64,000 nucleotides of DNA from a virus (IMGVR_UViG_3300042197_001567:1-64000); one strand, 5' to 3'. Shown: positions 46,330 through 50,100, counted from the stretch's first letter. The notes: generated from the letters alone by a model not told the origin. Made by a program: numbers and translations.

Positions 46330-47030
46330 TATTTTAAACTTTTTAATTTCATAATTGCGTCAATCAATACTTCAACATCTCTCTCACAGTATTCGGCAAT
46401 TTCTTTTAATTTATTTTGTTCCCAGTAGGATTCGTGTACTTTACCACCAGTTACCTCACCATCTTTTGGTGTCGGTATATCCAAACAAGCACACATCAAA
46501 TCTAATGAACCAATTGCGGTGTATGCCCCATATTGCCAAATTTCTTTTGTGTCAATTGCCTTTACCTCCCATGGTTTAGTATCGTAAGACGGAAGTATTT
46601 TAGATGGCATAATTCCATTTACAATCATACGTTTTGCTAACATAGGAATGTCAAAGTTTTTTAAATTATGACCGCAAAGGTAAAAGTCTAACTTATGACA
46701 ACGATTTAATAAATCTCGAACATCGGTTAACAATTTAACTTCGTCATCACCAGAAAACGTTTGTTTTTTTACTTCACCATTATCTAAAACAAATGCCATT
46801 GACACACAAACAATTTTTGCAAACTCCGGAACTAATGCGGTTCGTTTTGCGAAAATCTGATCTAATGAAAGTTGCGAATCTTCAGGAAATCTTTTTTGAA
46901 ACCAGTCGATATATTTAATGAATTGATCCGCCACTTTTGGATTACTGGTTTTACATGTTTCATAGTCCCTACAACCACCAACAGTTTCAATATCCAAAAA
47001 TAAAATTTTTGTTAAAGGTATATTTATCAT
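46329..47030 (-). CDS. DnaQ-like 3'-5' exonuclease (PolB exo-like)
   Basis: DIETV, GHN.KNFDIP, YCERDV. Confidence 0.9.
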   Translation of the reverse strand: MINIPLTKILFLDIETVGGCRDYETCKTSNPKVADQFIKYIDWFQKRFPEDSQLSLDQIFAKRTALVPEFAKIVCVSMAFVLDNGEVKKQTFSGDDEVKLLTDVRDLLNRCHKLDFYLCGHNLKNFDIPMLAKRMIVNGIMPSKILPSYDTKPWEVKAIDTKEIWQYGAYTAIGSLDLMCACLDIPTPKDGEVTGGKVHESYWEQNKLKEIAEYCERDVEVLIDAIMKLKSLK

Positions 47031-47863
47031 TATTTGTTTTTTAGTTTATCGATTATTTCCCACCCTTTGTTTTTACCATATGCTTTTAAAGTTGTGGTGC
47101 TAACAGACAATTTATTTTTTTTTACATGTTCAATAAATGAAGTATAACCCAAAAATTTTAAAATGTCATTAGATGGTGTTTTAATTACCCAAATAATTTT
47201 TCTAGAGTGAGATTGTTTTTCCACCGATTCCTTGCTCCTTTTCTTACCTAATCTAGATAAAGACATTTGTATTTTTCGTTCATCAGTATATTTTTTACCT
47301 TTGTTAGGTGATACTTGTCCTTTTTTTTTATCTGAAATTTTTTTCTTGGATTCATTAGACATTGGTTTTTTTTTTATACCTTTTAGTGACTCACTAATTT
47401 TTTTTCTTGTGTTGTCATTTATAATTCTACCTTTAGACACTTCTCTAATTTTTTTTCTAAAACCTTCAGACATTTTTAGACCTTTATTCCAACCACCGAT
47501 ATTTCTATTTTGATTTTTTGCGGTTTGAGACATTTTAATTTTACTTTCTTTGGTGTGTTTTTTTCCTAACATAGGGGATCCGCCGTCACCACCTGAAGTT
47601 AAATTAACTAAATTAAATCCCCAACATTTCATTTGATAAATCCAATATGACTCAATTTCATTTGATATGTCATCATCACAGATATCTAATATTTCCATAA
47701 CAATTTTTCTGTTATTTAATAAAACATTATTAATCCACTTTTCTTTATAAGTTTTTTTGTGTTTACTCTCATTGATGTGTGAGTGATATCTTTTGACGGT
47801 AAATTTTGTTTTACCAACATAACGGATTTTTTCTCCGTCGCTTAATGTGTAAATATAAGTCAT
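47030..47863 (-). mobile_element. Free-standing GIY-YIG homing endonuclease with NUMOD3 repeats
   Basis: YIY.L.....IRYVGKT, R..SH, E.YWI, N.T.GGDG, repeated H(T/S).E.K.KMS. Confidence 0.85.
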
Positions 47864-47891
47864 AACAATAAATATTATGACTTATATAATA

Positions 47892-49139
47892 TTACTTAAC
47901 TAAACTCAAATAAAAATCAGCTCTTGTTTTAGTGACCAAATTAAGATCATATCTATCTTTTACGGTTTCATACAATCTTTCTCCAAGATCTGTAATCATA
48001 TTTGGATTTTCAACCAATTTTTTAATCGATTTGAACCAATCGCTGTGATTTCTTGTCTCATCAACTAATAGTGCGTTTCCATCAGTAAACTGACCATTTT
48101 TAAGTGCGTGTTTTAAATCAATTGTATATGGACCAACGTTTGATGCGATTAATGCTTTTTTATAAAAGCCAGCCTCAATTACTTTTAATTGTGATTTCAT
48201 TCGATTAAATACATGATTTTTAATTGGTGCTAATGAAATATCAAATTTAGAATAATTTTTAGCATAGCTTGTAACCGGTCTTGTCCATACTCTAACATAA
48301 TTTTCATTCTCAACACCAAGGTAATCGTTCTCAATAAAAGTATCTAAATAATTTTTATACTTTTCTGAAATTATTTTGTAATTATCAGTAAAAATCTGTT
48401 CGTATTTAACCCAAACGGTTTCTTCAGGTCTAATTGGTCTTTGTGTTTTTTCACCAGTTTGTCTATTGATTTCAGTAACTTGTCCTCTAATGTCAAATCC
48501 ACAAACATAATACTGTAACTTATTTTGGTAGTTTGACAACTTTGGGACCAATCCGTCTAAAAGTTTTAAATCATGTAGGTGAGAAGATCCTCCTAACCAA
48601 CCAACTCTAATTTTTTCGGATGGTAGTGTTGGTTCACAAAACTGCGGGTCTTTTGGATCAACAGCATTAGGTAAAACAAAAACATTTTTATTAAATTTTC
48701 TAATTTCATTTGCAAACAATTCTGTGGTTGTCGTAACATAATCACAAACTTTAAGATTTGCCATAATTTTCTCGTGCAATTTGTTTGACACGATTAACTG
48801 ATGAATTGGATGTTCTTTTGTTGGTAACCAATAATCATCAATATCTCCAATTACAACAATACCTAATGACCGTAATGATTTAATTAAATTTGGTGTGTTA
48901 TCGTAATCTGAACCTATGGTTCTGTGAAAATGTACAATCTGATATTTTTTCCAGTAATTTATATCGTTAATTCTTGGCGAATAATCAATATCAACATGAA
49001 ACTCGTCTGGAAAAAGATTTTGTAATTTAACGTGGGGGTCAACTGAACGGAATTTACCTCAGCCAACCCCCGACTGGTCACTTGGAAGAACCAATACTCT
49101 GATTCTTTCACGACCATTCAAGGGGTTATTTTGTGTCAT
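47892..49139 (-). CDS. GT-B (GT4-like) glycosyltransferase; full frame from ATG 49139 interrupted by one in-frame TGA (codon 27, 49059-49061)
   Basis: MTQNN...RIRVLVLPSDQSGVG*GKFRSVDPH...DIDDYW...RVGWLGGSSH..DL...LAP....FN..KSQLKVIEAG; otherwise open for 416 codons. Confidence 0.85.
49034..49071 (-). other. GC-rich mRNA hairpin containing the in-frame UGA (candidate recoding signal)
   Basis: GGGGGUUGGCUGA pairs with UCAGUUGACCCCC (13 bp, 3 G:U); inner loop GGUAAAUUCCGU. Confidence 0.7.
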
Positions 49140-50040
49140 ATTTTTTAATTAGTTTATTTATTATAGTTCGATCCGAAATATAATCCGATTCCCAAACTAC
49201 TTCTAAATTATAACCATTATTTAAAATTATGTCAACTTTGTTTCTATCATATTCCCAAAGTTTTTCGGCCGTCATACCTTTTACTTGGTGAAAATAGTCT
49301 TTATTGTACTTGTTTGGGTTACAGTGCCAATAATCACCATTATACTCTATTATCAAATTTAATTTAGGTAAAAATATATCACAAATTTTTGTATCAACTC
49401 TGTGAGAATGTTTTACACTATACCCAAGTTTTTTTATTTCATTTATTATTTCTTTTTCTGTTTTTGATCTGTTAATTGATTTTAATTTACCTAGTCTTCT
49501 TGTTTCATTCATTTTTTCAGACATTATTTTTTTAACGTGATCTAATTCACCACTATCCCATTTTTGTTTAAGATTTTTTCTTGCCTTTTCTTTCCACATT
49601 TTGTTTGACATAGAATTTTTATTACCAGTCGCCTTTCCTTTTCTATTTTCAGATATTTGTTTTTTTGTTTCTTCTGAATGTTTTTTATTATAAAATGGGT
49701 TATTATTTCCTTTCATATTTTCAGATAAACAACTTTTACAAACTGAATTTTTATTTTCTGAATTAAAATAGTTTCTACATGTTGTTACTTGAGTTTTTGT
49801 TGTAATTAATATTATTTTTTCACATCTCGGACATTTTCTTTCAGTTACATACTTCCCATTTATTAGTTTTATCTCAATAGATTTACATCTATTTCTTTTT
49901 CTAACAACTTTGTTATCATTCAGTATTTTTAAAATAGTTGGTTTAGAAACATTAAATTCTTCGGCAATTTGTATCGAATTTCTTCCTTGTAAATATTTTT
50001 TGATGATTAACTTTTCGTCCAGATTGATCTTTTTACCCAT
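49126..50040 (-). mobile_element. Free-standing homing endonuclease, Vsr-like (EDxHD/DUF559-type) with HTH, Zn ribbon and NUMOD3 (start revised to 50040)
   Basis: IAEEFNVS..TI HTH; CPRC/CKSC; NPFYNKKHSEETKKQIS; DIF.PKLNLIIEYNGDYWH; VWESD. Confidence 0.8.
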
Positions 50041-50100
50041 AACATTTTTTATTATAAATACACCGTAAATGTCAATAGGCAACATTAACAATAGAAAATA

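Follow-up and report, generated by a model that had tools for sequence, protein, structure and literature searches.

A putative mobile cassette with a stop-containing coding gap in the glycosyltransferase gene of an uncultured jumbo phage

The sequence IMGVR_UViG_3300042197_001567:1-64000 (64,000 nt, hereafter “the window”) is part of a 91-kb record from an uncultured lake jumbo phage with 31% G+C. It carries a glycosyltransferase (GT) gene that is interrupted near its start by an in-frame UGA and preceded directly by a gene for a Vsr-like, free-standing homing endonuclease. The best explanation, to which we assign a probability of roughly three in four from sequence comparison, is a mobile cassette made up of the endonuclease gene, a rebuilt GT 5' end, a hairpin and a short insertion over which ribosomes would hop, with a second homing endonuclease gene as an unrelated neighbor. 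The original prediction had described the locus as a cassette of the mobA/gene 60 kind. The likeness in anatomy and evolutionary behavior stood; the N-terminal extension and the 5' hairpin, which are parts of the cassette, had been missed.

All genes of the stretch are encoded on the minus strand (Table 1). The GT frame 49139..47892 is open apart from TGA at 49061-49059, in the context TCG GGG GTT GGC TGA GGT AAA TTC, and GT codons 26 to 28 are GGC-UGA-GGU. The endonuclease stop codon (TAA, 49128-49126) lies inside the GT start region, with the GT ATG at 49139, and is 65 nt from the UGA. The coordinates, 14-nt overlap, distance of about 65 nt and 6-nt insertion given in the original prediction all held when checked by reading the sequence and by aligning homologs.

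We propose the following sequence of events. The ribosome would translate as far as GGC, with UGA in the A site; peptidyl-tRNA-Gly would leave GGC and re-pair with GGU six bases downstream, and translation would resume at AAA to yield the native loop SGVGKFR. Refolding of the 5' hairpin behind the ribosome probably aids the forward movement. The cassette would comprise three parts: the gene for the Vsr-like free-standing homing endonuclease; the rebuilt GT 5' end, in which an 11-codon extension pairs with the ..PSDQSGV codons to form a 63-nt hairpin ending at the take-off codon; and the 6-nt GGC UGA in the Gly loop that connects strand beta-1 to helix alpha-1.

The six bases were identified as an insertion by alignment of 16 homologs, most of which lack exactly two codons at this site. 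Most GT homologs read PSDxSGV-GKFRS unbroken, and a minority have two extra codons together with a longer N-terminus (MTQNNPLNGRERIRVLV). A DNA pattern in which the inserted codon was left free (GGN GTN GGN NNN GGN AAR TTY...) recovered 31 viral contigs, all 31 with a stop at NNN, and a metagenome scan added 69 loci. Pooled with those found earlier, the pattern-bearing loci numbered 117, comprising 54 distinct 51-mers. A stop was present in every one (TGA in 28 and TAA in 26 of the distinct 51-mers, TAG and sense codons in none), and the preceding codon was always GGC or GGT.

A census made without regard to frame reduced 310 loci to 169 distinct alleles, of which 99 are insertion-free and 70 have an insertion of 5, 6, 7, 8, 9, 10 or 13 nt. 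All 70 follow one rule: a GGY or AGY take-off codon, TGA or TAA at once (again never TAG or a sense codon), zero to seven more bases, and a landing codon. Take-off and landing codons agree in their first two bases in 69 of the 70, the exception being L215 (AGT..GGC). Ten of the insertion alleles are out of frame, and they account for five of the seven lengths. The take-off codons GGY and AGY are both read by tRNAs with a wobble G; TCN is a frequent codon in native Ser alleles, as are GGA and GGG in native Gly alleles. Descent and a decoding constraint are candidate causes of the restricted choice of take-off and stop codons. Gene callers miss or truncate genes of this type, with entries that begin after the gap or show Trp at the stop.

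The out-of-frame relatives were obtained through the endonuclease and through a second GT subfamily (∼50% identical), and each locus was read in three frames. Examples of the variable-gap alleles are GGC-TGAATTTAAA-GGA, GGC-TGAATTA-GGT, AGC-TGACTA-AGC, AGC-TGACA-AGC, AGC-TGAAA-AGT, GGT-TAAAT-GGT, AGC-TGAA-AGC, AGC-TGAT-AGC, GGC-TGAA-GGT and AGT-TG-AGC. Gaps of 2, 4, 5, 7 and 10 nt were read frame by frame, and some hold two stops. The upstream frame runs ..K-I-K-V-L-V-V-P-S-D-R-T-G-V-(G/S) and ends at a stop, and the GT body lies in another frame from the landing codon onward. When take-off and landing are joined, the result is exactly the loop seen in insertion-free relatives (TGVGYFRS, TGVSYFRS or TGVSFFRS); alleles with a native Gly have Gly codons at both positions, and those with a native Ser have Ser codons at both. 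Because the variants restore the loop in this way, a peptidyl-tRNA hop can account for the whole set, which readthrough, re-initiation and a change of code cannot. We infer that ribosomes very likely hop over the stop-containing gap. The original prediction that hopping rescues the GT protein is now much better supported, by the stop rule, the matched landing codons, the out-of-frame alleles and purifying selection.

In the case of plain readthrough, a near-cognate or suppressor tRNA would read the UGA and the GT would have an extra Gly-X in its loop. The window insertion is indeed in frame, UGA is the leakiest stop, and database gene callers place W at the site. This explanation is nonetheless improbable: the 10 out-of-frame alleles, some with two stops, give the same loop when the gap is skipped, and the second codon is TGA or TAA, interchangeably, in 59 of 59 distinct 6-nt alleles, with no sense codon despite synonymous divergence (dS) above 1. 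If a loop longer by two residues worked, sense mutants would be expected to spread. No tRNA gene is present on the 91-kb record.

Re-initiation is less probable still. Under this explanation, a 26-residue peptide would end at the UGA and the rest of the GT would be restarted downstream. TTG or CTG does occur near the landing codon in a few variants (L213, L224). No start codon is common to the variants, however, and the next in-frame ATG, GTG or TTG of the window is GTG 48791, about 90 codons past the UGA; a product begun there would lack strand beta-1 and the Gly loop. A matched landing codon would also be unnecessary for a restart. A sequencing or assembly error, or a reassigned code, is what a lone in-frame TGA in a metagenomic record might suggest, and its chance is close to negligible. 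More than 100 independent contigs, drawn from many samples, have the same site, and TAA variants exist. TGA ends 12 other long open reading frames (ORFs) of the record, and only one of these frames continues for 60 or more codons past the TGA; the standard code therefore applies.

Insertion alleles retain the signs of a working gene. The GT ORF downstream of the insertion is intact in all 40 complete insertion loci. The ratio of nonsynonymous to synonymous divergence (dN/dS) is 0.04-0.19 within insertion-only clades and 0.02-0.09 for insertion-free pairs, values to be read with the caution that dS in GT comparisons is frequently saturated (>1). For L110 and L112, both of the insertion clade, dS is 0.22 and dN/dS 0.044. 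The codons before the stop change synonymously while the peptide is kept. By these measures, the GT of insertion alleles is functional and under purifying selection. L128 is the sole insertion-bearing locus with an early GT stop, at 279 codons, and may be a pseudogene or contain a sequencing error.

It could instead be supposed that homing drags a stop into the GT gene, the gene being dispensable and the insertion alleles recently dead. Repeated recent conversion would scatter insertion alleles among insertion-free sisters, which is how they are distributed, and the ORF of L128 is shortened. We regard this as very improbable in view of the divergent insertion-only clades with low dN/dS and intact ORFs. 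The gap also outlasts decay of the endonuclease (to 39-117 matched residues) or its loss, and evolution has preserved the stop, the matched codons and the hairpin as well, with covariation.

The link between insertion and endonuclease was assessed in the 80 best GT loci of IMG/VR, picked regardless of the site. The Vsr-like gene (13 loci) or a remnant of it (3 loci) was found directly upstream in 16 of 16 insertion loci versus 3 of 64 insertion-free loci (Fisher p = 3.6e-14), although these counts are not phylogenetically independent and insertion and endonuclease are just 65 nt apart. A co-occurrence of this kind had been named in the original prediction as a check. Among 76 distinct insertion loci, 52 have a full endonuclease gene, 14 a remnant, and 2 an enlarged spacer only, while 8 are too short to judge; gene or remnant is thus present in 66 of 68 assessable loci, the decayed copies retaining 39-117 matched residues. 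In the second GT subfamily, the endonuclease accompanies 11 of 17 insertion loci versus 0 of 47 others.

Signs of movement are also present. Insertion alleles are dispersed over the GT tree beside insertion-free sisters (window/L011, L002/L004, L016/L046, L033/L051), and the endonuclease tree is at odds with the GT tree. L033 and L020 share 85-94% nucleotide identity over most of the endonuclease gene and the first ∼100 nt of the GT gene, compared with 67-81% in the GT body and 45-71% upstream. The difference between L002 and its insertion-free sister L004 ends no more than 30 nt past the site. The mean pairwise-identity profile of all insertion alleles shows a modest excess near the site, which is blurred by the indel, and single pairs are more telling. 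Taken together, the comparisons make it highly probable that insertion and endonuclease are linked as a cassette. At L002 (L002:705-3096), and at this locus only, about 2.4 kb of extra sequence lies between the homolog of the upstream 196-aa gene and the endonuclease, giving a spacer of 3378 nt versus ∼1090 nt.

The endonuclease matches Pfam NUMOD3 (PF07460, E 5.9e-10, over the cut-off) and HTH_7, and its NUMOD3 region resembles the DNA-binding domain of I-TevI (1i3j). The Vsr/MTES_1575-like nuclease family PF18741 was matched with E 1.8e-5 and 25.2 bits, under the Pfam cut-off of 38.2. The motif D..NLxIE.xGDYWHCNP, invariant across 21 homologs, is kept in the window endonuclease. PHROGs label the protein as a homing endonuclease. 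Weaker PHROG matches include phrog_559, “HNH endonuclease” (E 9.7e-9), and no Pfam HNH family was matched.

The N-terminal extension (..N/T-P-x-x-G-R..) is present in all insertion alleles and in no insertion-free allele, where “MS/ME” stands in its place. When the 60 nt upstream of the gap were folded for 78 alleles, the extension codons (ACC CCN .. GGT CG) paired with the S-D-x-x-G-V codons, and the predicted helix ended 0-2 nt ahead of the take-off codon across alleles. A covariance model built on the second GT subfamily gave full-length, correctly placed matches in most of the window's subfamily (E ∼1e-6 to 0.8); several insertion loci, including that of the window itself, did not reach E 1. 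Matches in insertion-free loci were mostly partial; just two were full-length, both weak (L201, E 0.012; L080, E 0.58). For 27 sequences, 84% of cells were paired, versus 77% after shuffling (0 of 500 reached the observed value) and 24-44% after sliding; note that this alignment was fitted to a model built on part of the same family, and that the counts lean towards structure.

Nine hairpin pairs have changes on both sides. In one covarying pair, the third base of the extension Pro codon and the third base of the Thr or Ser codon before GGG occur as AU, UA and GC; in another, CG changes to UA together with GGG to GGA. The Gly codon is GGG in 21 of 25 insertion alleles versus 2 of 42 others, a preference attributable to hairpin pairing. 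With 57 upstream regions aligned by plain MAFFT, RNAalifold returned no structure, the 5' arms being misaligned between lineages.

Two other candidate signals were rejected. The 3' hairpin around the stop is strong in the TGA class only; TAA alleles form it more weakly or in a different register, and four alleles lack it. It is lineage-specific and not a general requirement. A Shine-Dalgarno-like reading of GGGG or of UGAGGU/UAAGGA was discarded: Ser-type gaps lack UGAGGU/UAAGGA, and the covarying hairpin accounts for GGGG.

Apart from the limits stated with the co-occurrence, dS and hairpin values, several observations weigh against the cassette and its hop. The match between take-off and landing codons is imperfect at the third base (GGA after GGY, AGA after AGC), and in one allele AGT is combined with GGC. 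The gap and the extension are retained, without an endonuclease hit, at six of the 17 insertion loci of the second subfamily; in four endonuclease-free alleles the upstream ORFs were read directly, and the spacer is of normal size. The AlphaFold model of the GT (14 sequences) is poor, with a predicted local distance difference test score (pLDDT) of 47, and in this poor model the insertion site would fall between beta-1 (residues 4-9) and alpha-1 (residues 22-31). Nucleotide and protein searches of phage records found no cultured relative. Two endonuclease sublineages that are nested among insertion-linked ones (L201-203 and L026, L051, L205, L207-212) adjoin insertion-free GTs, several of these loci having ordinary bases at the site, and the gap persists where the endonuclease is gone.

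The last two points speak against immunity. By analogy with gene 60, and as in the original prediction, the insertion might shield carrier DNA from its own endonuclease; this is the least certain element of the proposal, and we put it a little short of even odds. In its favor, the insertion site lies within a highly conserved stretch of GT DNA. L026 and L051, whose endonuclease is 41% identical and which have no insertion, have AAA>CGG at the adjoining codon (2 of 42 distinct insertion-free alleles), and L205 has GTN>TGT two codons upstream of the site. In L026 and L051 the endonuclease is 254 aa long, the upstream context is identical, the GT bodies are distant in the tree, and AAA>CGG replaces Lys with Arg. 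These two loci may represent a second cassette with a substitution-type mark.

Alternatively, the hop is real and the insertion is no immunity mark, the target being the GT start or the intergenic site in its empty state, either of them already disrupted by the endonuclease gene. Gap and hairpin would then throttle or time GT synthesis, or represent a tolerated, hitch-hiking scar of the first invasion. Besides the sublineages with ordinary site bases and the gaps kept after loss of the enzyme, the free drift of gap length and sequence speaks for this alternative, and further functions are debated for gene 60 as well (bioRxiv 10.1101/2022.08.31.505936). We consider it rather unlikely, given the tight link of the insertion with this endonuclease clade, the position of the site among the most conserved DNA of the GT gene (the sort that homing enzymes choose), the substitutions in L026/L051 and L205, and the MobA/gene 60 precedent. 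In that precedent the gene 60 insert blocks MobA, and there too endonucleases have been lost while the gap stays (bioRxiv 10.1101/2022.08.31.505936).

The cassette shares much with that of T4. In both, a free-standing homing endonuclease gene lies directly upstream of a gene that has a remodeled 5' end encoding extra N-terminal residues; a stop comes immediately after the Gly take-off codon, and the landing codon, also for Gly, matches the take-off codon; the gap outlasts decay or loss of the endonuclease; and the element has spread among large myovirus-like phages. Bonocora et al. are said to have described in 2011 how the T4 gene 60 coding gap is carried by a MobA homing-endonuclease element. 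The differences are as follows. The gap is 2-10 nt here (3 nt in the window) and 50 nt in gene 60; the target is the Gly loop of a GT and not a topoisomerase; the endonuclease is Vsr-like, whereas MobA is HNH; there is no division of the host gene into two ORFs carrying tails; and take-off follows just 26 codons, which places the nascent chain still within the exit tunnel. Family searches of the endonuclease and the GT turned up no similarity to gene 60 or MobA, with no direct comparison run. By these comparisons, the cassette would work like the gene 60 element and is not a member of it by descent.

Other systems offer partial likenesses. Synthetic stop-hops from 1987 (cited in PMC5009743) have two codons of one tRNA around the stop, the arrangement that GGC-UGA-GGU shows in the window; those were low-level and without stimulators, whereas the window site occurs naturally on a mobile element, behind a conserved hairpin, and is itself conserved and under selection. 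In the mitochondrial byps of Magnusiomyces capitatus (PMC5009743), short blocks are skipped and take-off and landing codons have to match in just two of three bases, but those are 27-55 nt long, number dozens per genome, depend on relaxed mitochondrial decoding and have no endonuclease link. The free-standing Seg/Mob endonucleases of T4 are also intergenic beside a conserved target, have NUMOD3 and HTH modules and are patchy among close relatives. Their immunity arises from silent substitutions or from insertion of the gene; in the present loci, the enzyme is accompanied by an insertion within the coding frame that contains a stop. Vsr-like replacements have been reported among such phage endonucleases (bioRxiv 10.1101/2022.08.31.505936).

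A protein search with the GT returned 7902 homologs, the top insertion-free one being 97% identical to that of the window. Its C-terminal domain matched PF13692 (Glycos_transf_1 type) at 17.9 bits, under the cut-off of 27. A nucleotide search of cultured-phage records gave only a short match, in the GIY-YIG gene described below, to an unannotated 735-kb metagenomic phage. The GT of that phage (LR756501.1:540613-541806, L001; 35% identity in the protein search) is the only fairly close one among GenBank phage records. GT matches in cultured phages (Phapecoctavirus and others) are at 28%.

The second homing endonuclease gene, of the GIY-YIG type, matched Pfam PF01541 (25.4 bits, cut-off 22.6) and PF07460 (43.7 bits) as well as phrog_314, a homing endonuclease family. 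The original prediction had placed it at the other end of the same GT gene; by its distribution it is not part of the cassette. Homologs that are 60-68% identical sit at the same junction, where the GT meets an exonuclease-like gene, beside insertion-free GTs (L344:2501-3316, the same as L051; L345:1487-2290; L347:2501-3058) and beside an insertion-bearing one (L133:76-885). L346 also carries a homolog (L346:169-972), on a contig that begins within the GT gene and leaves the insertion site unreadable. By this evidence, the GIY-YIG gene is an independent second homing element.

In the second GT subfamily, an intein-like insert of about 370 residues occurs in the GT after the conserved motif WLGGS at L206:3963-5120, and also in L213, L216, L224 and L231. 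It starts with Cys (CMTPDTEIL), ends with ..MWVGN before SHLKDL, forms one open frame and matches LAGLIDADG_3 (E 7e-11). With this insert, the GT gene is a target of three kinds of selfish element. At L030, L036-L039, L048, L050 and L057, an extra 450-650 nt separates the GT gene from the exonuclease-like gene, where 5-30 nt is usual, and may be another small insert or an endonuclease remnant.

Table 1. Coordinates of the features of the GT locus, counted from the first nucleotide of the window.
Feature	Position	Strand	Details and basis
Vsr-like/NUMOD3 free-standing homing endonuclease gene	50046..49126	minus	306 aa, ATG at 50046; HTH_7, NUMOD3 and putative C-terminal Vsr/PD-(D/E)XK-like nuclease; Pfam, PHROG
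Overlap of endonuclease stop and GT start, 14 nt	49126..49139	minus	Direct sequence reading
GT gene of 415 codons, putative GT-B type; a single in-frame UGA (codon 27)	47892..49139	minus	phrog_7162, E 8.5e-45
GT N-terminal extension MTQNNPLNGRE, cassette-specific; codons form the hairpin 5' arm	49107..49139	minus	In every insertion allele and no insertion-free one
Predicted 5' stem-loop, 63 nt; last paired base directly before take-off codon	49065..49127	minus	dG (folding free energy) -27.8 kcal/mol, z -4.7; covariation in other lineages
6-nt insertion: putative take-off codon GGC (49064-49062) and UGA (49061-49059)	49059..49064	minus	Missing from most homologs
Putative landing codon GGU, followed by resume codon AAA	49056..49058	minus	First two bases match take-off in 69/70 alleles
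Alternative 3' hairpin, 13-15 bp, around GGC-UGA	49034..49071	minus	Lineage-specific; rival of the 5' hairpin base for pairing with GGGGGUU
GIY-YIG + NUMOD3 homing endonuclease gene, between GT and 233-aa exonuclease-like gene	47030..47863	minus	Pfam; PHROG

A 2016 review states that stop-hops are known from synthetic constructs only and that “no occurrences are known” in nature, in-frame stop-hopping having been predicted since 1987 and never found (PMC5009743). The gene 60 cassette was called unique in a 2022 preprint (Manning & Atkins, bioRxiv 10.1101/2022.08.31.505936). Our literature search found no paper describing the present site or cassette. What these loci probably represent is a natural and widespread family of very short bypasses with gaps of 2-10 nt, including true stop-hops (9 nt, one amino acid), that is independent of gene 60, driven by a hairpin, and spread by a Vsr-like endonuclease that marks carrier DNA without changing the protein. 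For bacteria and phages, knowledge of programmed bypassing comes essentially from one case, T4 gene 60. If correct, our reading would provide a second, independent bypass lineage with dozens of natural “mutants” that differ in gap length (2-10 nt), Gly or Ser take-off, TGA or TAA, and hairpin. Such variants would reveal what a ribosome requires in order to make a short hop, in a minimal system of ∼100 nt, and an endonuclease combined with an untranslated insert would be a repeatable strategy of selfish DNA.

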